From the IMG/VR virus record IMGVR_UViG_3300009314_000007, positions 32,001 to 96,000 of that record: a DNA stretch of 64,000 nt; one strand, 5' to 3'. Positions 29,016 to 62,884 of this stretch are shown piece by piece (the stretch's first letter is position 1; the number at the start of each line of letters is the position of its first letter). The position numbers and the translations under genes are program-made. This stretch comes from a virus. The notes below the pieces were generated by a model that worked only from the letters and a program-made list of their open reading frames with translations, made no database searches and was not told the origin of the DNA.

Positions 29016-31004
29016 GTGAGTAAGAAGAAAACGACGAAGAAGAAAGTAGCCAAGGCAGCCGTGAAGACGCGAGTGCCCGGGGCTCCCAAGGCAAGGAAGC
29101 GGACCAGGGACGCGCAGAAGGGCATGACGGCGCCGACGCTCGCCCCGCCGGACGACCGCACGCTGATGCGTGCAGGAGGGCGGTTGCCGCATGGTGGCAC
29201 GGTGCCGGAGGTGCAACTGTTGCGGCCCTCCTGGAAGGATGGGCACATGATCGTGCGGCCCTTGCCGACGTGGAATCCCATGAAGCCCGGCGAGGAGCTG
29301 GACCCGATTCGGAAGAGCGCCGAGCCGAATGGTTTCCGCGATTGGATTCGGGAAGTCACGGCTGTGTCCTATTGGGGCTCGGACGACGATGCGGTCACCT
29401 TCCTGTTGTACGACAAGGAGAACAGCACGCCGGACGAGTGGAGGGTCAATCCGGCCGTCGTGTTGTTTAGGGCGGTCAACGCGATAGCGAATCCGCAGAA
29501 GCCCACTTCGCAGTCGAAGTACATCGCGAAGTGGGCGAAGCTGATTGTGGGCAGCAAGAGGCTCATCAGCCCGCCCACGTCGTTGCTGTTCATGGGTGGC
29601 CTGGTGTTCAAGCGGGGCAACGACGTGTACTTCGGCAAGGACGCCCTGCGCGTGCCGGTGGGTTTGGCAGACGACGACGCCCCGCCGATCATCCAGCTCA
29701 AGGGCTCGCCTCGTTTCAAGGGTTCCTTGGTGTATCGTGTCAAGGAGGCCCTCAACGCACTCAATCCCGAGTGGGAGGGGGACCTGAGCGACTGGGAGAA
29801 CTCGATGCTCCATGGCGACGTGGTGGCTCCGGAGCACGGGCGATTCCTGACCATTTACAACCCGAAGGCCGAGGGTTTTCTGGCGAAGTCCGACGGGGAC
29901 GACGACGATGACGACGGCGAATTCGGTGTGGGTGGTCAGGGTGATGGTTCGCGAGGCAAGAAGGACGACGCCGAGGATATTCAGGGCTACCAGGTTCGTG
30001 TGGACAGGCACCTCCACCGCAACGGCAAGCTGCTGAAGAAGACGGCGACACTGGAGGACTCGTCCAAGGGTCCGTTCTTGACCACGGCGAAGCGGCAGAT
30101 CGTTTTCCTGGACGATATTCTGTACTTCCCGAGTGTCGAGGAGCAGTGCTTGCTGATCGCCAGGGCCCTGCGGCATTATCGGGAGCTGGTCGAACTTGGT
30201 TGGCAGCGACACCCGGAGTTTCTCACCGACGAGGTGCGGGCGGTGTTGGCCGACGCTACGCAGGCTGCGGTTGGTGGGGACGTTCCGGAAGACGAGGAGG
30301 GCGACGACGAGGCGTTGGACGAAAGCCTGACTCCGGGTAGCCGCGAGCGCCGACGTTCTGCCGGGGTCCCCGCGGCTGAAGTCGAAGAGGCCGAAGCCGA
30401 GGAGGGCGACGACGAGTACGAGACGGTCGAAGAGATCGACGCCGAGGGCGAAGACGAGGCCGAAGTCGCCGAGGGTGAGGAGGGCGACGAGCTTGAAGAG
30501 GACGAAGAGTACGAGGTGGTGGAAGTCGAGGAGGAGGTCGAAGTCGCCGAGGGTGAGGAGGGCGACGACGAGGAGGGCGAGGAGGCTGAAGCCGAAGACG
30601 AGGAGGTCGAAGCCGAGGCTGAGGAAGGCGACGACGAGTACGAGTTCGAGGAGGTCGAAGTCGATGAGGAGGACGAGGCTGCGGAGGAGGGAGAGGACGC
30701 TTCCGACGAATACGAGGACCCCTCTGATGTAGACGACGAGGAGTACGAGGAGGTGTCGGAAGAGGAGCCCGAAGCGGAGGCTGAGGAGCCCGATCCGGAC
30801 GAAGAGAACTTCCAGGAGCTTGCTGAGCAGGCGGAAGCGAGATCGGCTGCTCGTAAGGCCCCGGCGGCGAAGAAAAAGGGCGCGCCGAAGAAGAAGAAGG
30901 CCGCATCGAAGGCCACATCGGAGGCCGCACCGAAAAAGAAGGTGGTCAAGAAGAAGGTGGTCAAGAAGGCTCCTCCGAGCCGCAAGAAGAAGAAGAGCAG
31001 CTAG
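29016..31004 (+). CDS. Putative ssDNA-binding protein with long acidic region and histone H1-like Lys-rich ends
   Basis: GGAGG SD, GTG start; IVRPLP recalls gp32-type SSBs; between pol and RecA; about 190-aa Glu/Asp tract; KKKVVKKKVVKK tail. Confidence 0.55.
   Translation: MSKKKTTKKKVAKAAVKTRVPGAPKARKRTRDAQKGMTAPTLAPPDDRTLMRAGGRLPHGGTVPEVQLLRPSWKDGHMIVRPLPTWNPMKPGEELDPIRKSAEPNGFRDWIREVTAVSYWGSDDDAVTFLLYDKENSTPDEWRVNPAVVLFRAVNAIANPQKPTSQSKYIAKWAKLIVGSKRLISPPTSLLFMGGLVFKRGNDVYFGKDALRVPVGLADDDAPPIIQLKGSPRFKGSLVYRVKEALNALNPEWEGDLSDWENSMLHGDVVAPEHGRFLTIYNPKAEGFLAKSDGDDDDDDGEFGVGGQGDGSRGKKDDAEDIQGYQVRVDRHLHRNGKLLKKTATLEDSSKGPFLTTAKRQIVFLDDILYFPSVEEQCLLIARALRHYRELVELGWQRHPEFLTDEVRAVLADATQAAVGGDVPEDEEGDDEALDESLTPGSRERRRSAGVPAAEVEEAEAEEGDDEYETVEEIDAEGEDEAEVAEGEEGDELEEDEEYEVVEVEEEVEVAEGEEGDDEEGEEAEAEDEEVEAEAEEGDDEYEFEEVEVDEEDEAAEEGEDASDEYEDPSDVDDEEYEEVSEEEPEAEAEEPDPDEENFQELAEQAEARSAARKAPAAKKKGAPKKKKAASKATSEAAPKKKVVKKKVVKKAPPSRKKKKSS
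30461..30567 (+). repeat. Acidic-tract DNA repeat copy A
   Basis: Shares 40-nt and 43-nt identical blocks with 50279-50379. Confidence 0.85.
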
Positions 31005-31050
31005 AGGAAGCGCAGCTAGAGTTACTATCCCGCTTGGTTGTCCGCTCCAC

Positions 31051-31089
31051 GCCCGCCCCGGTCACACGGGGCGGGCTGGGGTCTTTTCC
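31051..31089 (+). terminator. Terminator-like hairpin before RecA-like gene
   Basis: GCCCGCCCCG/CGGGGCGGGC 10-bp stem followed by TGGGGTCTTTT. Confidence 0.55.
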
Positions 31090-31100
31090 AGGAGATGCAC

Positions 31101-32546
31101 ATGGCTAAAGCTAGAGAAGCGCCGAAGGCACGACCTCGACGCGAACCCGCGGCCGATTCCCCCGGGGAGGCACCACGGCCCCCGGCCGCTGTGAAGAAGA
31201 AGGTGGTGAAGAAGAAGGTGGTTCGTAAGGTTGCCAAGAAAAAGAAGAGAAAGACCAAGGCCCAGGTGTTCAAGGAGGCCTGGCAGCCCGAGCGGGTTGA
31301 GCAAAGCGCTGGCGCCTACGTCGATGCGATCATGGATCGGCTACAGAAGGAGAAGGGCGACCCGGACATCGTGATGGTCGGTAGCGACGACACCGTGGAC
31401 GTGGGCATTCCATTTCCCTCGTTCTGTCTGGAGTATCTGTTTGGCATATCCGTGTATCCTTTGGGGCGCATAGTGATGGTGGTAGGTCCCGAGGCGTCCT
31501 TGAAGAGCGGGTTCGTGTTCGAGATCACGAGGTGGTTCAAGGAAAGTTCTGGGCACGCCTTTACACTGGAACACGAGTCCAAGTTCTCGAAGACGCACGC
31601 GCAGTCCATTATTGGGCACGAGTACAAGCGAGCTACCGGTCTCGTGTGGTGCGACTCCATTGATGACTGGCAAGACAACATGCAGGCGATCTTTTCCGAC
31701 ATCAAGCTCAAGATGATCGGGACCAAGACCAATAGGGGTTCAGGTATGGTCTTCCCGGTTCACATGACCGTGGACTCGATCATGGGCAAGTCCCTGAGGG
31801 AGTCGCAGGATCGAATTGAGAAGAAAGGGCACGCTGGGCGGGATCACCCTGTTGAGGCTCAGAGCATCACCAAGTTCATGCGAAAGATCCCGCAAGATAT
31901 TCGTCGGTGGCCTTTCGCGATCACCATGGTGAATCATCTCAAGGCGAAAAAGACTGAGCAGGGTTTTCTGATTCGCGACAAGGCAGGTGGTAAGGGTCTG
32001 GATTTCCAGGAGACCTTCGAGATCGAGATGGCAAGGGTCACGCGGTCGAAGCTGAAGGACTACGAGGTGCTCCGTTTGCGGATGAGGTGTGCCAAGAGTA
32101 GCCTGGGTATCGACCAGCGGAGCATTCTTGCGGACGTGCTATTCTGGGACGAGCCGGAGGACGCGGAGAATCCGGAGGGATCTTGGCACCAGAAAACAGT
32201 GTTCAATTGGCATGGGGCCACTATTGACTTGTTGCTGGGGATGGAGGGCCCGGAGCGCAAGCGGTGGTCGGGAGACAGAGAAGTGGATGATCCAGGTGTG
32301 CTTGATTTGCACAGGCACGATCTAGGCAACAAGGGCAAGGGTGTCTGGTCCAGGACACTGGGGATTCCCGAGACAGACCCGGTTCCGTTCGCAGAAGCGG
32401 GGGCGATCCTGTCCGACAATGTTGAGGTGATGACGGCTCTTCGGCATCGCTTTGGCATCAAGATCTTCCGCGAGTTTGAGCCGGGCACGGACTATCGTGA
32501 AACGCGGGGTACCACCAAGAAGAAAATCCGGGAGAAGCTGCGATGA
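31101..32546 (+). CDS. recA: RecA/UvsX-like recombinase with Lys-rich N-terminus
   Basis: PLGRIVMVVGPEASLKS (variant Walker A), LEHE, TVDSI, MVNHLK, AGGKGLDF. Confidence 0.85.
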   Translation: MAKAREAPKARPRREPAADSPGEAPRPPAAVKKKVVKKKVVRKVAKKKKRKTKAQVFKEAWQPERVEQSAGAYVDAIMDRLQKEKGDPDIVMVGSDDTVDVGIPFPSFCLEYLFGISVYPLGRIVMVVGPEASLKSGFVFEITRWFKESSGHAFTLEHESKFSKTHAQSIIGHEYKRATGLVWCDSIDDWQDNMQAIFSDIKLKMIGTKTNRGSGMVFPVHMTVDSIMGKSLRESQDRIEKKGHAGRDHPVEAQSITKFMRKIPQDIRRWPFAITMVNHLKAKKTEQGFLIRDKAGGKGLDFQETFEIEMARVTRSKLKDYEVLRLRMRCAKSSLGIDQRSILADVLFWDEPEDAENPEGSWHQKTVFNWHGATIDLLLGMEGPERKRWSGDREVDDPGVLDLHRHDLGNKGKGVWSRTLGIPETDPVPFAEAGAILSDNVEVMTALRHRFGIKIFREFEPGTDYRETRGTTKKKIREKLR

Positions 32547-33148
32547 CCACTCAACCTCCGTTTAGTGAGGATGACGTGCTGGGCTCCGTGGATTACACCG
32601 CGAAGGATGCCCAGAAGTACGAGGACACGGTAGTCGCACACCTGTGCAGCCGTTATGGGCTGGGGCCGGGTGTGCGGCAGAGATTGCGGCAGCGGGGCGA
32701 CGGTGTCCTCAGGCTGCGGATGTTCCATGACGAGTTCCCCACGTTCCCGATGATCCTGGCCGCACATCGCTGGCGAAAGGTTCATCTGGGATGTCGAGTG
32801 GTAGACCTGTTTAGCAATTTCCCGACTCGTAAGTTCGTGGAGGAGTGGCGGCGGGCGTGCCTGGCGCATGGGGGCGGGATTGACGGCCACTTCGGATTAG
32901 TGTTTCATTGGCCTTATCTGCGGGGACAATTGTTACCCAGTGAGGACGGGGGGAGGGCCAAGCGGGAGCCCGGTGGCGGTGTTGGGCTGGTTCTTCGCAA
33001 AGGGGCTCCCAACCGGCACGTTCCCGGGGTTCGTGTGGTTTGTATTTCGCCTGGTAACAGCAGCGAGCAGTTCGTGCTGGAGCCACTCTCCGTGCTGCTC
33101 AATGAAATCGACTTCGATTGTGGTGGGATGTGGTGCCCGAATGTCTGA
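32543..33148 (+). CDS. Hypothetical protein
   Basis: ATGA-coupled to recA, 201 aa. Confidence 0.65.
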   Translation: MTTQPPFSEDDVLGSVDYTAKDAQKYEDTVVAHLCSRYGLGPGVRQRLRQRGDGVLRLRMFHDEFPTFPMILAAHRWRKVHLGCRVVDLFSNFPTRKFVEEWRRACLAHGGGIDGHFGLVFHWPYLRGQLLPSEDGGRAKREPGGGVGLVLRKGAPNRHVPGVRVVCISPGNSSEQFVLEPLSVLLNEIDFDCGGMWCPNV

Positions 33149-33590
33149 GAAGCGTAAATGGTTCAATTCTTCCCCTCCGAGTCACATGGAGGAGGTTGTC
33201 CTGCACAGCGCCGCGGGCGTCTCCGCTACTGGTTGTCGGGAGTTCCTGGTTCTCTGCGAGCACTTGTTCGAGCGGAAACGGATTTCCGACAAGACCCACC
33301 GGTTACTCACGTCGTTGGGGCGACAGCAGCCAGCTCGGAGGCTTGCTCGTAATCTCTCGACGGTGTTGCAGAGACTGGCGGACGGTGCTACAGGTTCCGT
33401 GATTCCAGAGGGGATCACAGATCGGGAACTCAAAGCACTGGTGGAGCTTCAGCGGGTGAATGTGAGTTGGGAGATGCGGGCTGTCGCGCAGGGCCTGCTC
33501 AACTTGCACGAGCGGCAGCAGCTTTTGCAAAGTGCGTCCGTCATGTTTCGAGAGGAACGTGCAAGACCATGGGATCTGGAAGATGAGTGA
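33141..33590 (+). CDS. Hypothetical protein
   Basis: 149 aa, overlapping coupling. Confidence 0.6.
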   Translation: MSEKRKWFNSSPPSHMEEVVLHSAAGVSATGCREFLVLCEHLFERKRISDKTHRLLTSLGRQQPARRLARNLSTVLQRLADGATGSVIPEGITDRELKALVELQRVNVSWEMRAVAQGLLNLHERQQLLQSASVMFREERARPWDLEDE

Positions 33591-34773
33591 AGCCGACGCT
33601 ATCATCGCCGTGCCGCCGAAGTGCTATCGTTTTTCCGAGCGAGAGGAGGGAAGGGACGCGGCCGAGTTGGAGCGTATCTTGCGAGCGCAGGACGCCACGG
33701 AGCCTGTGGAGATCAACAAGCCCAAGGATGCGATGCTAGACAGCACTGGGCGGGTGCAGCGGCGGTTTCGGTTCACCACGACGGGTCTTAGCCAGTTGTG
33801 CTCGGCGCTCGCGCCGGGGCTGGCTCAGCTTGCGAGTAACGTGGCGGGACTTCGCAGGAAGGACACCGAGACCGACGAGTGGAAGGTGTACGATCCAGCC
33901 CTGGCGATTCATCAGATTAACGATCTGATTCGGTTGCGATTCAAAGAGCGGCTAGAGGGTCATGGGCTCATAATGGATCGCAGAAGTCTCAGCGTCGAGG
34001 GGGTCGTGGGGCCTCGCTATAAGTTCCTGTCCAACCTGGAGCTGTTTGAGCAGGCCAGGGAATTCGCACGGGAGCAGGAATCCATGCCGCGGTTCTTCGA
34101 GGCGACCCTGGAGGGTCGCCGGGTGGTGATTCGGTATCGAGACGCCGAGAGGCTGTTCTCGCTACCCGCGGCTCAGCAGAAACGCGAGCCGTTTTATCGG
34201 GGGTGGCATTTCTCCAATTCCGAGATTGGCGATTGCTCGATACGGACGGGGATGCTGATTGTCCGGCAGTGGCGGCGAACCTCGTCGCTGCTGGACATCG
34301 GCCGGTTGGTGCATTTGAAGGGCGGGGAGTTTGGTCCAAAGATTGGGGAGTTATTCCAGAAACTTCGGGTACAGGCCAACGCCGAGGCGCAGGAGAACGA
34401 TTACGAGAGCCTGGCGGCGGATATGCAGGCAGAATCTCTGCAACTAGGCGGAGATCCTGTGGCACACGTGCGGCGAGCGCAGAGCCTGGTTGGGCGGCTG
34501 TCTCGGGGACGACTGTCGAAGATCGCAGCGAAGCGGGCGGTCAATCACGCTCTCGCAAACGGGAGTTATCGGGGCGACCGGGTTGAAGGGGGCCGCGTTC
34601 CGACGTACGATGCCCCTGATGAGGATCTCTTGGGTGTTTTTCGTCAGCGCAATGTGTACGATCTGTACAACGCGCTGACGACGATTGCTCGGGAGTCGCC
34701 TCCCGAGCAGCAAGAGGTGGCAGAAGAGCAAGCGTATCGTATACTTGTCCAACGTTTTCGATTACACAATTAG
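33583..34773 (+). CDS. DUF932-like protein
   Basis: VVGPRYKFLSNLELF, GWHFSNSEIGDCSI, NVYDLYNALT. Confidence 0.55.
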   Translation: MSEADAIIAVPPKCYRFSEREEGRDAAELERILRAQDATEPVEINKPKDAMLDSTGRVQRRFRFTTTGLSQLCSALAPGLAQLASNVAGLRRKDTETDEWKVYDPALAIHQINDLIRLRFKERLEGHGLIMDRRSLSVEGVVGPRYKFLSNLELFEQAREFAREQESMPRFFEATLEGRRVVIRYRDAERLFSLPAAQQKREPFYRGWHFSNSEIGDCSIRTGMLIVRQWRRTSSLLDIGRLVHLKGGEFGPKIGELFQKLRVQANAEAQENDYESLAADMQAESLQLGGDPVAHVRRAQSLVGRLSRGRLSKIAAKRAVNHALANGSYRGDRVEGGRVPTYDAPDEDLLGVFRQRNVYDLYNALTTIARESPPEQQEVAEEQAYRILVQRFRLHN

Positions 34774-34789
34774 GAAGGAAGAAACCCCA

Positions 34790-35764
34790 ATGGCGAAGTC
34801 AACAATCGCTTTGACCACGGAACAGAAGAAGCTGTTCCAGATGATGCCGAAGCCACTTCAGGCTATGGCTGCGAAGATGAAGAGGGCTACTGACGAGATT
34901 GTCAGCCACGAGGTGCTCGGCAAGTACGGGCTCGGCGAAGAGGTCCGGCGCGTGACCAACAACGAGCGCAAATACGGCGAGGCCGCGGTGCCCACACTGG
35001 CCGCGTTTTTGGGCGAGCACCCCAACGTGCTTTGGGATTGCCAGCGGTTCTGCAACGCTTACACTCGCACGGAAGTCGAGCGGATGATCAGGCGAGTGGG
35101 CGCAGGCGGCCAGCGGATCACTTTTGGGCACCTGAGAGTGCTTTCCGGGTTGGAGGGCACCGACGCCCTGAAAAAGCGGGTCAGGCTGGAAAAGGCCATT
35201 TTGGAGGAGGGGCTTTCGGTTCGCGCGTTGGAGAAGGCCGTCCAGGCGATACTCGGCTCGCGCACCACGAGTGCTACTCCAGGGCGCAACGTTCGCGTGG
35301 CCAAGGATGTGTTGTCGGGTCTTGCCGACATGACCACCAACACCAAGAAGCTCGTCAACCGAGTGCCGTCCTGGGAGAAGGGCGTGTTCGTCCGCGTGGC
35401 TGCGGGCGACGGCGTGACTAAGAAGACGGTTACGCAGCTCGAAGCGTCGAAGAAGGTCATGGACGATTCCATCGCGAAGCTCGAAGGTGTGTCCTCGCAA
35501 CTAGACAAGGCGATCTCCCAGGCAAAGAAGGAGCTTGCGAAGCCTAATCGACCCGCACCGGCCAAGAAGAAGACGGCTCCGAAGAAGAAGGTCGTGAAGA
35601 AGAAGGTCGTGAAGAAGGCGAAGAAGAAGACGACCAAGAAGAAGAAGGACCCGAAGAAGGCGGCCAAAAAGAAAGTCGTGAAGGCGAAGAAGAAGGTCAA
35701 GAAGAAGCGCACGAGCGCTACCGACCGGATTCAGGCCGCGAGGCGGAAGCGACGACCGGCGTGA
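34790..35764 (+). CDS. ParB/Spo0J-type (DUF1016_N-like) DNA-binding domain protein with coiled coil and H1-like tail
   Basis: KYGEAAVPTLA..L, ITFGHLRVLSGL...ILEEGLSVRALEKAV; no N-terminal ParB CTPase (GxRR) box; about 70-aa Lys-rich tail. Confidence 0.65.
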   Translation: MAKSTIALTTEQKKLFQMMPKPLQAMAAKMKRATDEIVSHEVLGKYGLGEEVRRVTNNERKYGEAAVPTLAAFLGEHPNVLWDCQRFCNAYTRTEVERMIRRVGAGGQRITFGHLRVLSGLEGTDALKKRVRLEKAILEEGLSVRALEKAVQAILGSRTTSATPGRNVRVAKDVLSGLADMTTNTKKLVNRVPSWEKGVFVRVAAGDGVTKKTVTQLEASKKVMDDSIAKLEGVSSQLDKAISQAKKELAKPNRPAPAKKKTAPKKKVVKKKVVKKAKKKTTKKKKDPKKAAKKKVVKAKKKVKKKRTSATDRIQAARRKRRPA

Positions 35765-35973
35765 CGTGTTGCGTTGGCCCCACCACGTGAGATCGCCCTG
35801 ATCGAAGTTGAGTGCTCTATTTGAGACTGCTTCGATCCCGACCTGGCACTCCAGTGGGGACCCCTTTAGGCAGAAAGGCTCGCAGGGTTTGCGGCGGGTC
35901 TGGGTGTGGACGGAAAATGCCGAATCTACCAGGGACGCTGGCCCGGCTAGGTGTATTAAGCCCGATCTTACCA

Positions 35974-36798: not shown

Positions 36799-36800
36799 CC

Positions 36801-37286: not shown

Positions 37287-37287
37287 G

Positions 37288-40312: not shown

Positions 40313-40321
40313 ATCTCGGGC

Positions 40322-41485: not shown

Positions 41486-41487
41486 TT

Positions 41488-45747: not shown

Positions 45748-45954
45748 ATGCCCAGGAAATACGAGATCCGCGTACTGATGATGCCCTGTGGGGGTGTGAA
45801 TCCGCGGACAGGGTTGCGAGTAGGCAGTAGGCACCGGTGGCTTGACGGCTGGGGTGAGGGCTGTTGCGAGTGGTGTGGGAGAACTCTCGACAGTCTGCGA
45901 GGACGGTATCGTGTTTACGAGGATGGCAGAATTGCTAGGGAGGAAGATTCGTGA
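45748..45954 (+). CDS. Small Zn-finger-like protein
   Basis: C...HRW...CCEWCG. Confidence 0.5.
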   Translation: MPRKYEIRVLMMPCGGVNPRTGLRVGSRHRWLDGWGEGCCEWCGRTLDSLRGRYRVYEDGRIAREEDS

Positions 45955-46706
45955 AGATAGTAGCGGAGATGCGCTTGAAACACGGAGTGCTTCGGGAGCT
46001 AAGGGAAAAGTACGGGACGCTGAAACGAGTTGCCGAGCTTATCGGGGCTCCGTATCAGACTTTGTGTAATTGGGCCGCTTTGCGCGCCGCGCCTACTGCG
46101 GGGCAGTACAAGGGCGCATACACCGAGGAGATCGAGCAGAATCTAGTGTTGCTGAGTGGGGTGCCCGCGGGGGAGATTTTCCCGCCAGCTCTGCGAGAGG
46201 CAATACCGGCGCTGCGAGAAGGACCGGAGCTTGTTCGCGAGGTAGAGCTGGCTCCCGAGGCTTTGTTAGAGCTGGCGCGAAGGGCGCAGGAGAGACTGGA
46301 GGCTCCCGATCCGGCGAGGGGGGCGATGGTGGGAGAGCTTCGCGAGCGCATGTTGGTTGTGCTTAGCGAGTTGCCAGTCCGGTCGCAGCATATTCTTTGT
46401 ATGCGGTACGGCTTGGCGCCGTACACTCGCGAACACACGCAGAGGGAAGTTGGAAAGAAATTCGGGGTGGAGCCTACGAGGATCTCGCAACTAGAGCAAC
46501 GAGCGATAAGGGAGTTGCAGCAGCCTTCTCGAAGCCAGTTGCTTGTGGGATTTGTTCCGGAGGGTCGGCCGAGTCTCTCCTCCGTACAACGGTTGCAGGA
46601 CGAGGCTGCGAACAAGTCAATACACGATATTGCTCAGGAAAGAGAGCAACGAAGACACAGGGAAAGGAGAAAAGATGGGGACGCAAGCGGTTGTGTCGGT
46701 GATTGA
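45951..46706 (+). CDS. XRE-type HTH fused to sigma70 region 4
   Basis: TLKRVAELIGAPYQTLCNW; LPVRSQHILCMRYGL..HTQREVGKKFGV..TRISQLEQRAIREL.QPSR; no sigma region 2 visible. Confidence 0.78.
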   Translation: MKIVAEMRLKHGVLRELREKYGTLKRVAELIGAPYQTLCNWAALRAAPTAGQYKGAYTEEIEQNLVLLSGVPAGEIFPPALREAIPALREGPELVREVELAPEALLELARRAQERLEAPDPARGAMVGELRERMLVVLSELPVRSQHILCMRYGLAPYTREHTQREVGKKFGVEPTRISQLEQRAIRELQQPSRSQLLVGFVPEGRPSLSSVQRLQDEAANKSIHDIAQEREQRRHRERRKDGDASGCVGD

Positions 46707-55985: not shown

Positions 55986-56477
55986 ATGGAAGTCATCTGT
56001 CACAAGAAGTGTCGCGACTGGCTTGGCTTCTTAATCAAGTTGTTCACGTGGGGGCCGTACAGTCACACAGAGCTGCGATTTTCGGACGACGTGTGTTTTT
56101 CCGCTTCCTGGGTAAAGGAGCGGCGGGGCTTTTTGGGTCTCTTTGGAGTTCGAGCTGGCACGAGGTTCAAAAAGATCGAGCTGAAGCCCGAACGATGGGA
56201 CCGCTGGAAGATCACTCTTAGTCCGGAGGAGGAGGCCAAGATTCGAGCTTGGTGCAAGCAGCGGGCGGGGCGTCCGTACGACATACTGGGTATCCTTGGC
56301 TTTGTTCTCTTCAAGGACATCGACGCTCCATTCGCTTGGTATTGCTCGGAGATCAGTTCCCGAGCACTTACCGTCTTCGGGATCTTCAGGTTTCCAAGCC
56401 AGATTTCTCCTAACGGCATGGCTCGCATCATGCGAGCGCACCCGAACATTTTCCAGCCAGTCACAGAGAGCGAGTAA
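55986..56477 (+). CDS. Permuted papain-like (NlpC/P60, YaeF/YiiX-type) protein
   Basis: YSHTEL ... GRPYD ... WYCSEI (His before Cys). Confidence 0.7.
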   Translation: MEVICHKKCRDWLGFLIKLFTWGPYSHTELRFSDDVCFSASWVKERRGFLGLFGVRAGTRFKKIELKPERWDRWKITLSPEEEAKIRAWCKQRAGRPYDILGILGFVLFKDIDAPFAWYCSEISSRALTVFGIFRFPSQISPNGMARIMRAHPNIFQPVTESE

Positions 56478-56482
56478 CACGG

Positions 56483-58435
56483 ATGGTCGCTTCCTCAGTT
56501 TCCAATAGCAGTTTCTTCTCGCCGTACGGCGCCATGGGCACAGGACGCACGGGGGACTTCTTCCCGTCACCTTGGTTCGATATGGCAACGGCAAGTATGC
56601 CCGACACCAATCGCAACGCGCTGGAGTGGTGCGAGTTCATCTGGCAATCACACGGCACTTTCCGGATGGGGCATGAGAGGATCATCTCCTACTTCCTCAC
56701 GGACATCGAGCTGGGTGCTCCGGACCCGGACAAGTCACTTGGCGAGGACGAAAAAGAGAAGTGGGAAAGCGTGTTGCGAGACACGCTGGGCGGCCTGGAG
56801 GCTGTGCAGGCAATGGACAGGGACAGGGCTTGTTACGGCAACTCGTTTGCATCCCTGGTTGTGCCGTTCGTACGCTTCCTGCGGTGCCCGAAGTGCAAGA
56901 AGGCGATGTTCAAGTTGGAGGAGATGGAGCGGTCCTCGGTCTTCAATCTTGAGTGGGATGGCAGCAACTTCCAGTTTGTCGCCGACTGCCCCATCTGCAA
57001 GCACCACGGACCATGGCAGATCGACGATCAACCGGACGATCTGGAGAAGAAGCTCAAGGTCAAGATCTGGTCGCCGCACGAAATGGAGATCAAGTGCGAC
57101 ATCTACTCCGGGGACTGCACTTACTACTGGCGAATCCCGGAGGAGTACCGGAAGGCCATTCGGGGCGGCGACATGTACCAGATCGCTCGCTGCCCGACGA
57201 AGGTGTTGAAGGCGATCAAGCATAACCTGAACTTCCGCTTCGCCCCGGATGCGTTGTTCCACATGAAGGAACCAACCCTGGGCGGTATCCGCTCCCGTGG
57301 CTGGGGGCTATCCCGTACGCTGACCAACTTCCGCAACGTTTTCTACGTCCAGGTGCTTCGACGATACAACGAGGCCATTGCGCTGGACTACATCATCCCG
57401 TTTCGGGTGATTACTCCGGATGTGCGGCCCACCGCGGGCGGCATTGGCGGCGCCGAGATCGCAGAGCCACTCCGCATGAACGACATGGGGGACTTCACGG
57501 CCCAGGTGCGGCAGATGCTTCGCCGTCGTCGTCGCAACCCGGCGACCTGGAACGTCATTCCTTACCCGCTCAAGTACCAGGCGCTGGGTGGGGAGGCGAG
57601 TCAGCTCGTGCCGAAGGACATGATGGACCAGGGCAACGAGGAGTTGCTCAATGCCATTGGCACGCCCATGGAGCTGTATCGAGGTACGATGCAGTTGCAG
57701 GCGGCGCCCGTCTCGCTGCGGCTGTTCGAGGCCACGCATCACAGCCTGGTTTACGACAACAATCGCTTCTTGCGATGGCTGGCAACGCAAGTTGGGCAGA
57801 TTCTGTCGTTGGCGCCTATCTTGGCCACGATGAAGCGCGTGACGCATGCGGACGACTTCAACAAGATGATGGCCTCGCTCCAGTTGATGATGGGTCAGAC
57901 GATCAGTCAGACCACAGGCCTCAAGGGAATGGGCATCGACTTCAAGGACGAGCAGCGTCTGATCGGGGAGGAGGCCCGCTACCAGCAGGAGCTTCAGGCC
58001 AGAATCCAAGAGGAGATGGCCCAATCGGCCTTCGGCGAGCAGATCGCCCGAGGCCAGATGGCTCCCGGACAGGCAGCAATGGGTGGCGGTATGCCTCCGG
58101 GCGGCGATCCCGCGATGGGTGGAGCGGGTGGAATGCCTCCGGGCGGCGATCCTGCCGCAATGGGCGGGGCTGGCGGTGCGGGCCCGGTTACTGGTATGTT
58201 GATGGGGCCAAATACGCCGGTGACTCCGGAAGACATGCTGGCTCAAGCTCAGTCTCTAGCTCAGTCTTTGCTTGGACTTCCAGAAACGCAAAAGGACAGC
58301 GAGCTTCGCGCTTTGAAGCAGAAGAATGAGGTTTTGCATGCACTTGTTACCGCGCAAATCAAACAAATACGACAATCGGCGCAGAGCGCAGGGCAATCCC
58401 TGCTTCTGGGGCAACAACCAGCAATGGCGCAATAA
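56483..58435 (+). CDS. Probable portal protein with Zn-finger insertion
   Basis: 650 aa, FPSPWFD..MP..ALEWC N-terminus, YGNSF, FHMKE...WGLS, IIPFRVI, LGGE; helical C-terminus; CPKC/CPIC insert. Confidence 0.6.
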   Translation: MVASSVSNSSFFSPYGAMGTGRTGDFFPSPWFDMATASMPDTNRNALEWCEFIWQSHGTFRMGHERIISYFLTDIELGAPDPDKSLGEDEKEKWESVLRDTLGGLEAVQAMDRDRACYGNSFASLVVPFVRFLRCPKCKKAMFKLEEMERSSVFNLEWDGSNFQFVADCPICKHHGPWQIDDQPDDLEKKLKVKIWSPHEMEIKCDIYSGDCTYYWRIPEEYRKAIRGGDMYQIARCPTKVLKAIKHNLNFRFAPDALFHMKEPTLGGIRSRGWGLSRTLTNFRNVFYVQVLRRYNEAIALDYIIPFRVITPDVRPTAGGIGGAEIAEPLRMNDMGDFTAQVRQMLRRRRRNPATWNVIPYPLKYQALGGEASQLVPKDMMDQGNEELLNAIGTPMELYRGTMQLQAAPVSLRLFEATHHSLVYDNNRFLRWLATQVGQILSLAPILATMKRVTHADDFNKMMASLQLMMGQTISQTTGLKGMGIDFKDEQRLIGEEARYQQELQARIQEEMAQSAFGEQIARGQMAPGQAAMGGGMPPGGDPAMGGAGGMPPGGDPAAMGGAGGAGPVTGMLMGPNTPVTPEDMLAQAQSLAQSLLGLPETQKDSELRALKQKNEVLHALVTAQIKQIRQSAQSAGQSLLLGQQPAMAQ

Positions 58436-58437
58436 AT

Positions 58438-58468
58438 GAGCCAGCGAAGTCGATAGCTTCGCTGGCTC
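58438..58468. terminator. 12-bp hairpin between portal and HNH gene (no U-tract)
   Basis: GAGCCAGCGAAG/CTTCGCTGGCTC. Confidence 0.45.
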
Positions 58469-58497
58469 GGACAATCCAATCTGAGAAGGAGATTGAA

Positions 58498-59412
58498 ATG
58501 CCAAAAAGCTATTCTAAGCCAACTGCTCGTAATTTCATAGATCTTGAAGGCCAGAGATCCGGTCGCCTGCTGGTCTTAGCTTTCCGCGGTATGCGAGACG
58601 AGAAGAGCTGGTGGCTTTGCCGCTGTGATTGCGGGACTCGCAAGGTGGTTGAAGGCTACTTGTTACGTTCCAAAAGGACGAAGTCTTGCGGCTGCTTGCA
58701 GCGAGAGCGGGCCGCGGATACTGGCAGAGCTTCGGCACGCCCGAATAGTTTGCGGAGGCAGTATCCGAAAGAGTATCGAGCCTGGGTGTCCGCTCGGCAG
58801 CGTTGTCGAGACCCCCAGCATCATTCCTATTCGGAGTATGGGGGGCGAGGCATCACGTTTTCAGAGGAGTGGGATGCTTTCAGCGACTTCCTTGCCGATG
58901 TAGGGCTAGCGCCTCTTCGAGCGACTCTGGATCGCAAAGACAATAACGAGGGCTACCGTCCCGGGAATTGCCGGTGGACTTCCATGCGGACGCAGATTCG
59001 GAATCGTCGGAACACGCTATGGCTGGAATACGACGGCGAGAGGAGACCGCTAGCTGAGTGGGCCGAAATTGTCGGGATAAGCTACATGACCTTGCGGGGG
59101 AGGCTGCGTGCGGGCTGGGCCGCTTGGGCTATTCTGGCAATTCCGGTGGGGGAGGCCCGATACCGGCTAACTTCGCGAGAGCGCAGGAAGAGGCTTCTAG
59201 CCCGGCGGAGGCTACAGTACGCCATGAAGACTGGCAAAGTTGTTCGACCAGACCGTTGCGAAGACTGCAATAGCAGCGACGGGGTACAAGGGCATCATCA
59301 TCTCGGTTATGATGGCGACAATGTGTATCGGGTGCGCTGGCTGTGCTCGGGATGTCATACTGAAGCAGAACAAGGGCAAGGAGGCCGTAGAGAAGGGTGT
59401 TTCCGTGTCTAA
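58498..59412 (+). CDS. HNH homing endonuclease with second HNH-like C-terminal module
   Basis: WLCRCDCG, KSCGC, YGGRGI, TLDRKDNNEGYRPGNCRW; C-terminal CEDC..GHHH..VRWLCSGCH. Confidence 0.85.
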   Translation: MPKSYSKPTARNFIDLEGQRSGRLLVLAFRGMRDEKSWWLCRCDCGTRKVVEGYLLRSKRTKSCGCLQRERAADTGRASARPNSLRRQYPKEYRAWVSARQRCRDPQHHSYSEYGGRGITFSEEWDAFSDFLADVGLAPLRATLDRKDNNEGYRPGNCRWTSMRTQIRNRRNTLWLEYDGERRPLAEWAEIVGISYMTLRGRLRAGWAAWAILAIPVGEARYRLTSRERRKRLLARRRLQYAMKTGKVVRPDRCEDCNSSDGVQGHHHLGYDGDNVYRVRWLCSGCHTEAEQGQGGRREGCFRV

Positions 59413-60259
59413 GTTTGAGTTCGGTAGTTATGAGTCTCTTTGCGAGATCACGGTCCCCACTAAGAATGCGCTCGTTCTCGTCTGCCCGGTCTGGCAAGCC
59501 TACGTATATTTCCGGAAGACCGTGGAAAGTTTTTTCCGCTATACTCCTCTTGAGTTGAACCCGATCTGTATTGCCCTGGATGACGCAACTTCCTCTCCGC
59601 AATTTCGGGAGCAGAACTGGGACTATTTCTACGCGGGGCCGTCATTGGATCGTGCCTTACCTCGTGAGCGGATTTGCCACCGATACTTCCACGAAAACGC
59701 AGGGCTTACGCGGTCTTGGAATGCGGGGCTGTCAATTGCGAGAGAGCTTGGAGCCCAGTACGCCATCGCCGGGAATGCCGATATTCTTTTCACACCGGGC
59801 TGGGAAAGAGCCCTTATCCATTTTCTGAATCAGGGTGTGCGACTGGTTGGTCCTGTGACCAATGCGCCGGGCCGGACCAATCGACAGCGGCAGAGTGTTC
59901 GCAACTACTTCCCGAACTATAAGGTCAACGACGACCGAGAGTACCTGCACAAAGTGGCTGGCTACCTCTGGCGCAACCACGGGGTCGAAACGATTCGGTA
60001 CATGATGATCAATGGCTTCTTCACCATGTCCACTCTGGCTCACTGGTTCGAGGGCGCCTTCGACCCGCACCACGTATTCGATCCTAGCAAAAAGATGCAG
60101 GGGAACGAGGACGAGTTGGAGGTTCGGTGGCAGCGCAAGCACTGGAAGATCGGCTTCGTGCCCGGGTCTTTTGTGTTTCATTTTCGGGCGGCGTCTCGGG
60201 GCCAGAAGTTCTGTCACACGGGATGGATGCGCACCAACGATCCCCACAAACCAGTTTAG
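59405..60259 (+). CDS. Glycosyltransferase family 2-like
   Basis: VCPVW, ALDDA, NAGLTRSWNAGL, GNADI, VGPVTN, GNEDE, FVFH. Confidence 0.8.
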   Translation: MSKFEFGSYESLCEITVPTKNALVLVCPVWQAYVYFRKTVESFFRYTPLELNPICIALDDATSSPQFREQNWDYFYAGPSLDRALPRERICHRYFHENAGLTRSWNAGLSIARELGAQYAIAGNADILFTPGWERALIHFLNQGVRLVGPVTNAPGRTNRQRQSVRNYFPNYKVNDDREYLHKVAGYLWRNHGVETIRYMMINGFFTMSTLAHWFEGAFDPHHVFDPSKKMQGNEDELEVRWQRKHWKIGFVPGSFVFHFRAASRGQKFCHTGWMRTNDPHKPV

Positions 60260-60268
60260 GAGTCGGGC

Positions 60269-60922
60269 ATGATAACGTACACCGCGATCCTGGGTGGGTT
60301 TCCGGATAGGCTCCATCAACCCGCGGAGGGTTTCGGCCAGCAGAACTCCGTCGCTTTCGTAGATGGCAGTCCCGATTTCTTGGCGCCCGATTTTAAGGAC
60401 GGCTGGGAGCTGATTCCAACAAACGCCAGAGCGAACCCTCGGAGAACGGCAAGACTGCTCAAGGTCTTGGCCCACAAGACGTTCCCCGGCGCCGAGTACA
60501 CTTTATGGGTCGATGGCTGCCTCACCCCGCTGACTCCGATGTGGCAGCTCGTCGATCAGTTCCTGTGCAACCACGACATTTGCGTCTTCGAGCATCTGGA
60601 GCGGGGCTGTGTGTATCGGGAGCTGGAGGCCTGCATCCGGCTGAAGAAGGACGACCCGGCGGTCATGCGGCAGCAGGTGAATGGCTATCGCGAGGAGGGC
60701 TACCCGTACAACCATGGACTAGGCGAGACCACGGCGGTGCTTCGCAGACACAATGAAGTCACCGAGGCGCTTAACGAGGCGTGGTGGGCTGAGATCGAGA
60801 AGGGGAGTTTGAGAGACCAGCTCAGTTTCAACTACGTGTGCTGGAAGCTCGGCGCGGATTACGCCACTTTCGAGGGAAACAGAACGAAGAGTCCGCATTT
60901 CAAACACCGGCCCCACCGATGA
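60269..60922 (+). CDS. DUF616-like glycosyltransferase
   Basis: YTAILGG.D, KVLAH, LWVDG, H.ER.CVY.E, RDQLSFNY. Confidence 0.82.
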   Translation: MITYTAILGGFPDRLHQPAEGFGQQNSVAFVDGSPDFLAPDFKDGWELIPTNARANPRRTARLLKVLAHKTFPGAEYTLWVDGCLTPLTPMWQLVDQFLCNHDICVFEHLERGCVYRELEACIRLKKDDPAVMRQQVNGYREEGYPYNHGLGETTAVLRRHNEVTEALNEAWWAEIEKGSLRDQLSFNYVCWKLGADYATFEGNRTKSPHFKHRPHR

Positions 60923-61956
60923 CTCCAACGACAATAGGAATTCACGCTCCGTACACTTGGGGCGAGACGACGTACATGGCGTTGACCCTGGCGGACCTGG
61001 CGGTTCGGTTCGGGCTCCGCACTTCTTTGCTGCCTACGAATGTCCATGCAGGGCCGGTTCACTTGCGGTGGGACCCGCATGTGTTGAGCAAGCACACAGA
61101 TTTTCGTCTTTGGGCTCGCGATTGTTCCCATGTGGTCTGGTTCGACGTGCAGCAAAACAAGCTGCTCGACGTGAAGGACAAGCCCACCAAGCACGTCCTC
61201 GTGTTGCTTTGGCATCGGCTTCGACTCAAAGACTTGGAGATCCTGCCACTCTACGACTATGTGGTGTGCCCGCACGCACGGGCCATGGAGGTGCTTTCCG
61301 GCAAGGTGGAGGCGAACTACGTGGCAGCGCCCTGGGACCCGGGCGGCTCGATAGTCGATAGTCCCCAGCGGTACGGCGGGGATCGGTTGCTTGTGGTTCT
61401 CGACCCGCACACCACCGAGACGATAGGCCATTTCCTGCTTCACTCCCTGCATGCTCTCCTGGATGCTTTGCCACGGTTGCAGCTCACTGTCTGGCATGAC
61501 AAACGATGGACCACGGCGGCGCACAGGGCGTACGGGGAGCTGATGGCGAAGCACGGGCAGAGGATTCACACCATCCGCAAGCCAACGGACGTGCAGAGGT
61601 CCCAGGCTTACGCCACGCACGACTGGGTCTTCTACCCGTCGATCAGGGACAACGCAAGCCTTCCGCTGCTGGAGGGCCTGTATGCGTCTCGGCCTGGAAT
61701 CGCCTTCAGTAGCCTGCCGCAGGTGGAGGTGCTCACGCAAGGACATGACGGTATGCTGATTCCGTGTGGTAGCCAGGAGACTGCTCTGGGCTCGCACGAA
61801 GTCCAGGTGGACCGGCACTTATTGGCCGACGAGTTGCATAAGATCTTGGCGGATGAGGCGATCTACACTAGACTGAGTCAAACTGACTGGTGGGAATTGT
61901 TGCCCCGGAGATACAAGTTTCAGCGTGTTTGGAAGCAAGTATGGGATTGTCCGTAG
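60919..61956 (+). CDS. GT-B fold glycosyltransferase (GT4-like)
   Basis: YDYVVCP, DWVFYPSIRDNASLPLLEGL...EVL..GHDGML. Confidence 0.72.
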   Translation: MTPTTIGIHAPYTWGETTYMALTLADLAVRFGLRTSLLPTNVHAGPVHLRWDPHVLSKHTDFRLWARDCSHVVWFDVQQNKLLDVKDKPTKHVLVLLWHRLRLKDLEILPLYDYVVCPHARAMEVLSGKVEANYVAAPWDPGGSIVDSPQRYGGDRLLVVLDPHTTETIGHFLLHSLHALLDALPRLQLTVWHDKRWTTAAHRAYGELMAKHGQRIHTIRKPTDVQRSQAYATHDWVFYPSIRDNASLPLLEGLYASRPGIAFSSLPQVEVLTQGHDGMLIPCGSQETALGSHEVQVDRHLLADELHKILADEAIYTRLSQTDWWELLPRRYKFQRVWKQVWDCP

Positions 61957-61966
61957 GAGAATAGCG

Positions 61967-62266
61967 ATGGACCCTGGATTACGTGCTCGCTCGGGTAATG
62001 TGGACTCTGACGACCAACTTGTCGGGTTCCTATATGAGCTGATGCGGGATCATCTTCCGTGCGGTGTGGTCGAAAGGCTGGTGAGTAACAGCAACCCGGC
62101 CAACACGTCAAATGGTGGCAACTGCCGCTTTACCAATGGCTTCCTGGCCAACTACGCGAAGGATTTGAGCCAGAGACTTAGAGGAGACAGAGATGGATGC
62201 TGTTCAACTCGGGAAGGAAGCGGCTCGTCGGACGACAGCGAAGAGCCGCCAGGTGAAAGTGAATAA
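61967..62266 (+). CDS. Conserved-type phage hypothetical protein
   Basis: AGGAG SD; LVGFLYELMRDHLP.G.VE...FTNGFLA.YA. Confidence 0.7.
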   Translation: MDPGLRARSGNVDSDDQLVGFLYELMRDHLPCGVVERLVSNSNPANTSNGGNCRFTNGFLANYAKDLSQRLRGDRDGCCSTREGSGSSDDSEEPPGESE

Positions 62267-62359
62267 GCCGGGTGGCCTCGCGGAGGCTATCCGGGCAACC
62301 AAGGCAGATCCCAAGGACGGGCGGCAGTTGCCGTGGTCTTATGGAGAAAAGAGGCGGAG

Positions 62360-62884
62360 ATGAACCAGGGATTGGTTTTGATGCCGGTGAGTCCAGGAGA
62401 GTTATTGGACCGGTTGACTATTCTGAATGTCAAGCAGGACAAGCTCGATGGTGATAAGCAGATCGCAGCTTTGGAGTTGTCGATGGAGCTGCACGAGGTG
62501 GCTGACCCGCTCCTCGACAAGCCGGGTGTTTCCCTCGTTGCCGATCAACTGTACGAGATCAACACGCAGTTGTGGGAGGTGGAGGACCATTTGCGGGCTG
62601 CTGACGGGCAGGTGTTCCCGATCACTGTCGGGCGGACGATTACCGAGGAGACCGTGAGGTATTGCTCGCTGGCTCGGCTCGTTTACAACCTCAACGATCA
62701 GCGATGTGGTTTGAAGCGAGAGCTTGATGAGATGCTTGGCGGTGTCGTCGAGCCGAAACAATACGCCGAATACGAGAGATCCCATGACAGAGGACGCCCC
62801 GCGGAAGAAAGTGATCAAGAAGAAGGTCATCAGGAAAGTGGCGAAGAAGCCCCAGGAAGCCCCCGCGGCGAGCCCCGTGGATGA
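62360..62884 (+). CDS. DUF6165-like protein
   Basis: PVSPGELLDRLTIL.VK, INTQLWEVED.LR, LARLVY.LND.R..LK, EPKQY. Confidence 0.78.
   Translation: MNQGLVLMPVSPGELLDRLTILNVKQDKLDGDKQIAALELSMELHEVADPLLDKPGVSLVADQLYEINTQLWEVEDHLRAADGQVFPITVGRTITEETVRYCSLARLVYNLNDQRCGLKRELDEMLGGVVEPKQYAEYERSHDRGRPAEESDQEEGHQESGEEAPGSPRGEPRG

Follow-up and report, generated by a model that had tools for sequence, protein, structure and literature searches.

Polybasic tails that hold single enzymes on DNA are already known, and DNA-binding lysine tails are usually rich in Lys, Ala and Pro. In Streptomyces, the lysine repeats of TopA bind DNA and stabilise the enzyme–DNA complex (PMC5714199). In phage T4, the LAST motif of gp32, (Lys/Arg)3(Ser/Thr)2, is described as a basic pentad that binds ssDNA and an acidic patch in the core region of a neighbouring molecule, while proteins of replication and recombination are brought in by the acidic C-domain (PMC12893549). 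The SSB of phage T7, gp2.5, anchors its acidic tail on a basic patch of the polymerase (PMC12339929). Type III TubZRC systems and phage tubulins offer a further comparison, in which a mobile element carries a tubulin/FtsZ-like GTPase together with an HTH DNA-binding protein. TubZ reaches DNA via TubR and through its own C-terminal tail.

In the window, the whole 64-kb stretch of viral DNA analysed here, one near-identical Lys/Val peptide is carried by four unrelated proteins. A six-frame scan with the strict pattern [KR]KKV[VI]KKKV[VI][KR]K returned exactly four matches, all on the + strand, in the window as in the whole 107,336-bp contig. These confirmed the positions and placements of the original prediction, namely the C-terminus of an SSB-like protein, the N-terminus of a RecA, the C-terminus of a ParB-like protein and the N-terminus of a tubulin. 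The first copy, KKKVVKKKVVKK, lies at 30933..30968 (+), residues 640–651 of the SSB-like gp77, in the context APKKKVVKKKVVKKAPPSRKKKKSS close to the stop codon. The second, KKKVVKKKVVRK, lies at 31194..31229 (+), residues 32–43 of the RecA/UvsX-like protein, with an added VAKK extending it to 31241 (residues 32–47). The third, again KKKVVKKKVVKK, occupies 35582..35617 (+), residues 265–276 of the ParB-like protein; the fourth, RKKVIKKKVIRK, occupies 62802..62837 (+), residues 7–18 of the tubulin-like protein, with a longer form reaching 62849. The two N-terminal copies have a longer common form, xKKV(V/I)KKKV(V/I)RKVAKK, identical at 13 of 16 positions. With K=R and V=I, the tag core is the only 10-mer common to four of the 128 predicted proteins, and KKK[VITSA]2 pentads are confined to five of them: PolA, SSB, RecA, the ParB-like protein and tubulin. 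PolA, a Family A DNA polymerase with a UDG-like domain (25465..28914, +), has a single pentad in its N-terminus (DKKPKKKAVLAKRR, about 25561–25600).

Amino-acid composition predicts about 3e-7 copies of the strict motif. When residues were shuffled within the 14 Lys-rich segments of the proteome, one core match arose in 38 of 20,000 trials and at least two in none of 20,000. The original prediction had read the differing Val codons as a sign of protein-level selection, and this argument held: nucleotide identity over the six pairs of copies (25–31 of 36) matches independent back-translation under the codon usage of the phage genome (P 0.10–0.87). All 15 residues (APKKKVVKKKVVKKA) agree between the copies on gp77 and on the ParB-like protein, but only 38 of 45 nucleotides do, against 37.6 expected. 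As the DNA is no more alike than back-translation gives, the sharing lies at the peptide level, and gene conversion between the copies, for which 36 of 36 nucleotides would be looked for, is unsupported.

Drift of low-complexity DNA has also to be weighed, in which slippage of a 15-nt unit is tolerated in disordered termini, contributes only mild charge and leaves the four copies coincidental. Two copies do use the same Val codons in both halves (GTG GTC twice; GTC GTG twice), and low-complexity DNA is exchanged within this genome: about 100 nt (about 50290–50400) of gene 103, to which no function is assigned (49482..50486, +; C-terminal acidic E/V repeat), are nearly identical to the DNA of the gp77 acidic domain. 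The K/V shifts seen between close relatives, described below, would also suit it. However, Lys runs are costly in a genome of 59% GC, where K makes up 5.3% of residues, yet the same termini keep them in relatives at 86%, 77% and 68% identity. Two unrelated genes agree in all 15 residues with saturated synonymous sites, at least two copies never came out of the shuffles, and neutral slippage would not predict confinement to five of 128 proteins, all of replication, recombination or segregation. Drift of this kind is considered quite improbable.

The reading favoured here, to which about even probability is given, is that the tag serves as a disordered polycationic tether for polyanions, phage DNA first and the acidic domain of the SSB second. 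Each arm would be a pair of Lys3-(Val/Ile)2 pentads at a free end of the protein, with a linker leading to the folded domain. It would hold polyanions electrostatically and without sequence specificity, most likely phage DNA above all. Held in this way, the SSB, recombinase, ParB-like binder and tubulin would stay longer on replicating phage DNA and become locally more concentrated there; that the four proteins end up together would be a side effect. The tags sit at termini with pLDDT below 50–60, on DNA-handling proteins of the replication module. The tether is favoured because every carrier, and most of the other basic-tailed proteins here, handle DNA; the latter include an alpha-CTD-like protein, a putative Zn-finger protein (gene 95) and an N6/N4 DNA methylase. 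As in actinobacterial TopA, a disordered Lys-repeat extension would be fitted to DNA enzymes in a GC-rich genome, with acidic residues nearby. TopA differs in being one cellular enzyme with K/A repeats, whereas four or five phage proteins carry strict K3-(V/I)2 pentads here, for which we infer DNA binding and its effect.

The functions first assigned to the four carriers were borne out by profile searches and by structure comparison of predicted models, that of the ParB-like protein more tentatively. The acidic protein, gp77 (662 aa; 29016..31004, +; GTG start behind GGAGG), consists of a basic N-terminus (1–36, with KKKTT KKKVA), a folded domain (37–420), a polyacidic region (421–600) and a basic C-terminus (601–662). 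Its AF2 model (pLDDT 86) places the core in the T4 gp32 SSB fold: VIA-align gives Z 9.8 to 2atq_B (202 of 210 aligned, rmsd 4.5) and Z 9.2 to 8gme_B, the next match being 3.8, and the top four Foldseek matches are all gp32 at probability 0.90–0.92, yet with E of only about 1e-2. Residues 1–38 (pLDDT 46–60) are predicted to be disordered. Residues 3–7, KKKTT, fit (K/R)3(S/T)2, and gp77 thus shares with gp32 the core fold, the basic N-terminus and the acidic C-terminal region. It differs in a core of about 385 rather than about 230 residues and in an acidic domain of about 180 residues (30276..30815, +), followed by a second basic tail. This E/D/V-rich domain, with stretches such as EVVEVEEEVEV, has a net charge of -10 to -13 per 20 residues. 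It could plausibly be another partner of the arms, as ligand or as competitor. The tags themselves differ from LAST in having Val/Ile for Ser/Thr and in sitting also on other proteins; among the four, only KKKVV or KKKVI occurs, and the true Ser/Thr pair is confined to the N-terminus of gp77 and the tail of the ParB-like protein.

gp77 belongs to a so far poorly described gp32-type SSB family with acid–base block tails (332 representative clusters). Among 150 members, a strongly acidic window is present in 95, a basic C-terminus in 74 and a K/V-type C-terminus in six, and in 13 of the 13 loci with enough flank the RecA-like gene comes immediately after the SSB gene. This arrangement, with the gp32 core and the KKKTT, would suit docking to an SSB hub. 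There, K3-phi2 pentads, as relatives of LAST, would bind acidic surfaces of the gp32-type SSB, either a core patch or the 180-residue polyacidic domain, perhaps also the matching acidic repeat of gene 103. This would draw polymerase, recombinase, ParB-like protein and tubulin to SSB-coated ssDNA, possibly in a charge-driven condensate. The T4 and T7 contacts outlined above set a precedent: in T7 gp2.5, an SSB acidic tail likewise meets clustered Lys/Arg of a replication partner electrostatically, although the basic patch of the T7 polymerase belongs to a folded surface and not to a terminal peptide, and the SSB fold differs. The E/V-rich acidic domain also mirrors the K/V tags, and basic and acidic blocks are paired in gp77, gene 3, the tubulin N-terminus and the ParB-like homologues P0299/P0300. 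However, unrelated phages with no known SSB of this kind also have K/V peptides on their DNA proteins, the short basic start of RecA homologues is kept whether or not the SSB tail is acidic, and the tags have Val where LAST has Ser/Thr. Acidic and basic blocks agree only weakly in their V/I content (rho 0.38, n=58 of 150), and the overall V/I content confounds this relation. Docking of this kind is regarded as unlikely, and if it does occur, the T4/T7 principle of an acidic-tail hub would extend to a larger, possibly condensate-forming scaffold.

A bolder version is an unlikely conjecture. It would be an electrostatic address code, with the giant polyacidic E/V domain of the SSB as scaffold and K3-(V/I)2 tags, descended from the LAST-like cooperativity motif of the SSB itself, as client signals. 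These would bring polymerase, recombinase, ParB-like DNA organiser and tubulin to one membrane-less replication/segregation factory on phage DNA. If true, no cytomotive filament before this tubulin would have been linked to DNA or SSB by a basic arm of its own in place of an adaptor.

To return to the tether and its carriers, the RecA/UvsX-like recombinase (31101..32546, +) scores 33.7 bits against Pfam RecA (cut-off 27) and 2.3e-13 against the PHROG UvsX-like recombinase. Its start was placed at MAKAREAPK after comparison to P0002, its homologue at 86%, and the P-loop K156/S157 varies little or not at all across 23 homologues. Over a RecA tree of 25 rows, the K/V label changes seven times and clusters no better than it does after shuffling (135 of 500 shuffles were as low); by this measure the tag is scattered and evolutionarily labile, as drift would also have it.

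The ParB-DNA-binding-domain-like HTH protein (324 aa; 34790..35764, +) comprises a helical domain (17–156), a coiled coil (164–250), a disordered Lys tail (252–308) and a short terminal helix. Its model (pLDDT 69.5) was built from five sequences, and its best matches are Spo0J/ParB DNA-binding domains: VIA Z is 9.4 to Spo0J (109 aligned, 23% identity) and 9.0 to ParB–parS, values that call for caution in a helical fold at Z below 13. Pfam HTH_ParB gives 19.2 bits, under the cut-off of 22.6. The ParB/Srx CTPase domain gave no Pfam match even at E <= 1, and there is no room for it, since the alignment already pairs residue 17 of the model with residue 100 of Spo0J. The Lys-rich tail of 57 residues (pLDDT <50, predicted disordered) contains, besides the tag, KKKTA, KKKTT and an extra KKKVVK at 35666–35683. 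A homologue at 53% has a K/A tail. In P0299/P0300 the tag is at the N-terminus instead, as MAKKKVVRK or MAKKKAVRK, which suggests that it is modular; a homologue with N-terminal MAKKKVVRK has an acidic C-terminus.

The Tubulin/FtsZ/TubZ-like GTPase (407 aa; 62784..64007, +, the last 7 bases past the window end) scores 39.8 bits against Pfam Tubulin (cut-off 33). It has the GGGTG(S/G)G signature as GFGGGTGGG, and GC3 periodicity changes to its frame at about 62,730. The PDB sequence matches include FtsZ (2.7e-11), RepX (2.1e-10) and TubZ (5.2e-5). The layout of a TubZRC type III partition system, with TubZ beside its TubR adaptor and centromere, is not seen here: the HTH protein lies 27 kb away, and the adjoining genes match no recognised family. 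The basic arm is N-terminal here, and the HTH protein resembles a ParB DNA-binding domain. No precedent for a tubulin with a DNA-binding arm was found described in the literature; if the arm does bind DNA, it suggests a tubulin that grips DNA free of an adaptor.

The presence of a tubulin, as in phages that organise a replication compartment, bears on whether the 12-mer is a dedicated address label. A specific receptor would read it and import or concentrate the carriers in such a compartment or at a cell site. Its exact identity across four unrelated proteins would fit, as would the two extended subtypes (APKKKVVKKKVVKKA at C-termini, ...RKVAKK at N-termini), which suggest more than composition, and the recurrence of MAKKKVVRK on RecA-, ParB- and SSB-like homologues of other clade members. 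However, no receptor, chimallin-like shell or compartment gene was recognised with Pfam (124 proteins) or PHROGs (62 proteins), in libraries that may lack the family and on an open-ended contig. No PhuZ chain is among the 54 PDB sequence matches of the tubulin at E <= 0.01. Many unrelated viruses have the tag too, and it is labile on the RecA tree and in relatives. A dedicated label is judged very unlikely. The original prediction had proposed a shared localisation or DNA-tethering signal: the tethering part fits best, with DNA-handling carriers and charge kept over sequence, and the localisation signal with its compartment is not supported, no receptor or compartment gene having been found in these scans and the tag being labile. 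Docking to the SSB acidic domain is a possible, weaker form of gathering.

Comparison with relatives supports conservation of the tag, in variable form. The 86% relative has the variants KKKVVVKKVVKK, KKKVVKKVVVRK and KKKVAKKKVVKKVVKK at the same three sites, which differ from one another; between close relatives the tags vary by K/V shifts. More distant homologues keep a basic tail, carry the tag on the opposite terminus or have lost it. On these comparisons, position and charge are better conserved than sequence, which favours the tether. It is favoured further by K/V peptides on RecA, HNH, portal and ParB-like proteins, often DNA-contacting, in unrelated phages. A search of 2.9 million IMG/VR contigs gives about 140 stretches that code for KKVVKKKVV, so the tag is not unique to one phage. 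In unrelated viruses, MAKKKVV[RS]K opens a canonical RecA (Pfam 1e-54), HNH nucleases, portal proteins and a DUF1016_N protein, and KKVVKKKVV ends a portal protein in another virus.

The KKKVV tails on portal proteins of other phages would also suit other polyanion targets, with the tags acting as anchors to anionic membrane lipids or as a means of packing the carriers into the capsid with the DNA. Acidic lipids can be bound by peptides that are both polybasic and hydrophobic. Against this, the 5-residue period yields neither an amphipathic helix nor a strand, SSB and RecA have no known need for a membrane or capsid location, and the carriers lie in the replication module with no structural-module context; such targets are held to be highly improbable.

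Some observations count against the tether itself. Charge alone leaves the regular Val pairs and the exact identity of the four copies unexplained; given the three differing variants in the 86% relative, this identity could have come about by chance convergence or by a short gene conversion, the latter unsupported as noted above. The presence in gp77 of both an acidic domain of charge -100 and basic tails suggests that electrostatic contacts between proteins or within one molecule are no less important than those with DNA. By sequence, the K/V motif is rare among tubulin homologues (5 of 111 full-length), and other viruses have carriers unconnected with DNA, namely a DPBB lytic transglycosylase, an FkbM methyltransferase and an ADP-ribosyltransferase domain.

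Here, one near-identical peptide is kept by protein-level selection on four or five unrelated proteins of one phage. Replication is represented by the SSB and perhaps the polymerase, recombination by the RecA-like protein, DNA organisation by the ParB-like protein and the cytoskeleton by the tubulin. Should the arm bind DNA, phages would have in it a simple and transferable means of gathering a whole set of tools on their genome, and 12 residues are small enough for reuse as a DNA-tethering tag.

The identical 9–10-mer (KKKVVKKKVV) also ends NCLDV DUF5871/DUF2738 proteins, directly after acidic low-complexity sequence as in gp77 (Pro–Glu repeats there). Unlike gp77, these come from eukaryotic giant viruses and have an unrelated domain with no assigned function; hhalign gives no link between them and T7 gp2.5 (probability 0.5%). 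The K/V end could be a nuclear or factory signal there. On the contig itself, a fifth related K/V tail, RRKTKIVKKKVKKKVKKKVKK, lies outside the window, and the C-terminal part of its host protein resembles, as a lead only, the RNAP alpha-CTD DNA-binding domain.

The tag [KR]KKV[VI]KKKV[VI][KR]K occurs exactly four times in the six-frame translation of the window, always on the plus strand: in gp77, in a RecA-like protein, in a ParB-like protein and in a tubulin-like protein. All four copies of the original prediction were thus recovered in place, and the motif scan proposed with it, run as a six-frame translation of the whole 107,336-bp contig, yielded no further copy. This single contig (58.9% GC; the window comprises its bases 32001-96000) is open-ended, and its genes were called by a codon-usage heuristic. 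No terminal repeat was found on the contig and no tRNAs were found in the window. Composition predicts approximately 3e-7 copies of the tag. Shuffling of the Lys-rich segments (14 segments in 128 predicted proteins) produced one core match in 38 of 20,000 trials and never two or more. The tag 10-mer is also the only 10-mer common to four of the 128 proteins when K is equated with R and V with I.

The sharing is at the level of the peptide, as had been proposed. Recent DNA copying would predict about 36 of 36 identical nucleotides, and the six copy pairs retain 25-31, the level of independent back-translation with the codon usage of this genome (P 0.10-0.87). The C-terminal copies of gp77 and the ParB-like protein, APKKKVVKKKVVKKA, are identical at 15/15 residues and 38/45 nucleotides, with differences at six of seven four-fold sites. 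The N-terminal copies of the RecA-like and tubulin-like proteins have 13 of 16 residues in common, xKKV(V/I)KKKV(V/I)RKVAKK. The DNA flanking the tags gave no alignment between copies. DNA-level readings of the motif, as a Shine–Dalgarno-like AAGGTGGT or as a recent duplication, were rejected because the ParB-like and tubulin-like copies lack AAGGTGGT and the nucleotide identity matches the back-translation expectation.

The gp77 gene (29016-31004, plus strand, GTG start after GGAGG; tag at residues 640-651 of 662) lies between the genes of a family A DNA polymerase and the RecA-like protein, in a replication module that includes an SbcC-like protein, helicases, primase and the polymerase. The protein has no match in Pfam or PHROG. 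Its family comprises 332 representative clusters at E <= 1e-3 and returned only acidic low-complexity matches from the PDB by sequence, e.g., nucleophosmin and ASF1, so a fold search was needed. The AF2 model of residues 1-421 (pLDDT 86) aligned over 202-205 residues with the SSB core of RB69 and T4 gp32 (Z 9.8 and 9.2; next match 3.8), which substantiates the SSB-like assignment. The top four Foldseek rows were all gp32, yet with E values of only about 1e-2. The gp32-like SSBs have been reported only from phages (PMC4889955). The SSB gene is immediately upstream of the RecA-like gene in 13/13 loci with enough flank.

From end to end, gp77 consists of a basic N-terminus, the core, a polyacidic domain of 180 residues and a basic C-terminus. 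Among the best 150 matches of the family (gp77 itself included), a strongly acidic window is present in 95, a basic C-terminus in 74 and a basic N-terminus in 50; only six carry a K/V motif near the C-terminus. The V/I contents of the acidic and basic blocks are weakly related across the family and the relation is confounded, and for this reason the comparison was not used as evidence. This architecture brings in the main rival to DNA tethering, namely that the tags dock on the SSB. The N-terminus of gp77 reads KKKTT KKKVA, and its E/V-rich polyacid mirrors the K/V tags. In T4, the basic LAST pentad of gp32, (Lys/Arg)3(Ser/Thr)2, binds an acidic patch of a neighbour and the acidic domain of gp32 recruits partners (PMC12893549); in T7, a basic patch of the polymerase anchors the acidic tail of gp2.5 (PMC12339929). 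Docking is considered rather unlikely as the explanation of the tags, and it is compatible with a DNA tether, the two not being mutually exclusive.

Approximately 100 nucleotides of the gp77 acidic domain are nearly identical to the C-terminal acidic repeat of gene 103 (49482-50486), which encodes an otherwise unrelated protein of 334 aa. The common DNA (within window 30400-30620 and 50230-50450) encodes EEGDELEEDEEYE...EEEVEVAEGEEGD. Such near-identity suggests that low-complexity sequence was recently exchanged within the genome, and it marks the gene 103 product as a second polyacidic protein of this phage. A non-acidic branch of the SSB family (P0239-P0295; loci L123-L131) has Gln/Ala/Pro-rich tails in place of the acid-base blocks. 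These tails end in a conserved Ala-rich motif, e.g., RAQAALLAAQRAAG, which may be an alternative partner-binding tip.

The RecA and tubulin assignments hold, both proteins scoring above the Pfam cut-offs. The RecA-like protein (31101-32546, plus strand; start MAKAREAPK as in the 86% homologue; tag at residues 32-43) scored 33.7 bits against a cut-off of 27 for Pfam RecA and matched a UvsX-like recombinase in PHROG. The tubulin-like protein (62784-64007, plus strand; tag at residues 7-18) scored 39.8 bits against 33 for Pfam Tubulin; its sequence matches are FtsZ, RepX and TubZ chains, and PhuZ is absent from them. GC3 periodicity enters its frame near 62,730, and the N-terminal extension is conserved in an 83% homologue. 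An upstream ORF (62333-62884) formally overlaps the tubulin gene by about 100 nt: in the frame of this ORF the purine-rich stretch of the tag contains no stop codon and would be translated as a Glu-rich tail. The coding signal departs from that ORF at about 62,730. The ParB-like protein (34790-35764, plus strand; start MAKSTIAL; tag at residues 265-276 of 324) scores under the Pfam HTH_ParB cut-off and has no space for a CTPase domain. Its modest structure model (pLDDT 69.5, built on five sequences) is most similar to DNA-binding domains, namely those of Spo0J (Z 9.4, 23% identity), ParB-parS (Z 9.0) and KorB. In the model the helical domain leads into a coiled coil and then into a tail of 57 residues whose pLDDT is under 50.

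With the RecA-like protein alone as query, no close relative was found in IMG/VR or in GTDB genomes; a profile search of IMG/VR gave 12 distant loci, and a metagenome scan supplied the 86% and 68% relatives. The 86% relative bears tags at the same three sites, all of them different (KKKVVVKKVVKK, KKKVVKKVVVRK and KKKVAKKKVVKKVVKK), and the 68% relative carries KKKVPTKK and KKKVVKKVTTRRVAKK. At none of the 12 distant loci did the 10 kb on either side of the RecA gene contain the strict doubled tag. A K/V motif lies in the first 60 residues of 9/22 full-length RecA-like homologues, 14/22 having a basic start, and on a 25-row RecA tree this label changes seven times, clustering no more than shuffled labels. 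Among tubulin homologues the motif is present in 5/111, including the 83% homologue (KKTVKKKVAKK). One ParB-like homologue has a K/A tail and one a K/V tail; two others combine an acidic C-terminus with MAKKKVVRK or MAKKKAVRK inserted at the N-terminus. The tag is thus a module that can switch ends. A K/V-tagged DUF3102-like protein (L074) was dropped as a ParB-like homologue, homology being undetectable. Neutral drift of low-complexity sequence as the origin of the tags is thought improbable and ranks below both DNA tethering and docking on the SSB.

The preferred reading, to which we assign about an even chance, is that the tag is a disordered polycationic tether that would hold its carriers on polyanions, mainly DNA, without sequence specificity. 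It is favoured because the carriers handle DNA, homologues preserve charge and position more than sequence, the tag switches ends, and unrelated phages have the same peptide on proteins that contact DNA; the lysine repeats of Streptomyces TopA provide a precedent (PMC5714199). KKK[VITSA]2 pentads occur in only five of the 128 proteins: the polymerase, the SSB and the RecA-like, ParB-like and tubulin-like proteins. Further DNA proteins of this phage also have strongly basic termini. Of the localisation or tethering signal originally proposed, the tether is thus retained on the DNA-handling carriers and the conserved charge; a dedicated address label is ranked lower, below docking as well, and is regarded as highly improbable. 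Individual DNA enzymes with lysine tails are already known, as are SSB hubs with acidic tails. What is new is a near-identical peptide on the SSB, recombinase, ParB-like protein and tubulin of one phage, alongside a gp32-type SSB with acid-base block tails. KKKVVKKK, KKVVKKKVV and KKKVVRK were not found within words of literature text.

A degenerate DNA scan of 2.9 million IMG/VR contigs found about 140 stretches encoding KKVVKKKVV. Most belong to giant viruses and AT-rich phages, and a contig usually has a single one. Of the 57 listed carrier ORFs of at least 150 aa, 53 were scanned and four from truncated loci left out. No family was assigned to 24/53, and 17/53 are giant-virus DUF5871/DUF2738 proteins ending in acidic Pro-Glu repeats and KKKVVKKKVV. 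The others include a portal protein, DPBB lytic transglycosylases, FkbM methyltransferases, a type I restriction-modification specificity (S) subunit and an ADP-ribosyltransferase-domain protein. MAKKKVV[RS]K starts 13 IMG/VR ORFs, namely those of a canonical RecA, HNH nucleases, portal proteins, a DUF1016_N protein, a zinc ribbon and an unknown protein. Membrane or capsid targeting by the tag likewise has very little probability, again below tethering and docking. In the portal proteins of unrelated phages, KKKVVKKKVVKK is C-terminal in one (L009:16-1533) and MAKKKVVRK N-terminal in another (L143:1801-3279).

The DUF5871/DUF2738 proteins (L002, L003, L006, L007, L012, L015, L017, L021, L023, L044, L050, L059, L061, L067, L070, L073 and L077) are about 330 aa long and end in an invariant KKVVKKKVV, which is preceded by acidic Pro-Glu repeats; gp77 has the same acid-then-K/V arrangement. 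Papers that name these domains give their function as unknown. The idea that the DUF5871 family might be a giant-virus gp2.5-like SSB was unsupported: the family had no PDB sequence match, and hhalign did not connect it with T7 gp2.5 (probability 0.5%).

A fifth, looser K/V tail, RRKTKIVKKKVKKKVKKKVKK, lies outside the window near the N-terminus of a 327-aa protein (L138:4211-5191; contig bases 4211-5194). It is followed by an acidic stretch of about 150 residues and a C-terminal part that resembles alpha-CTD domains of RNA polymerase in an ESM Atlas structure search (TM 0.65 over a short match; weak overall). At least two small alpha-CTD-like proteins are encoded (L139:3847-4299 and window 8985-9332; Pfam 5.7e-15 and 3e-8), one of which ends in KKKRRRRRKKRVRRK, and a sigma-70 region 4 protein is located at 45951-46703. 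The 14-bp palindrome CAATAACGTTATTG, the sole one present more than once on the contig, has three exact copies (window 14727 and 38090; contig base 98249).
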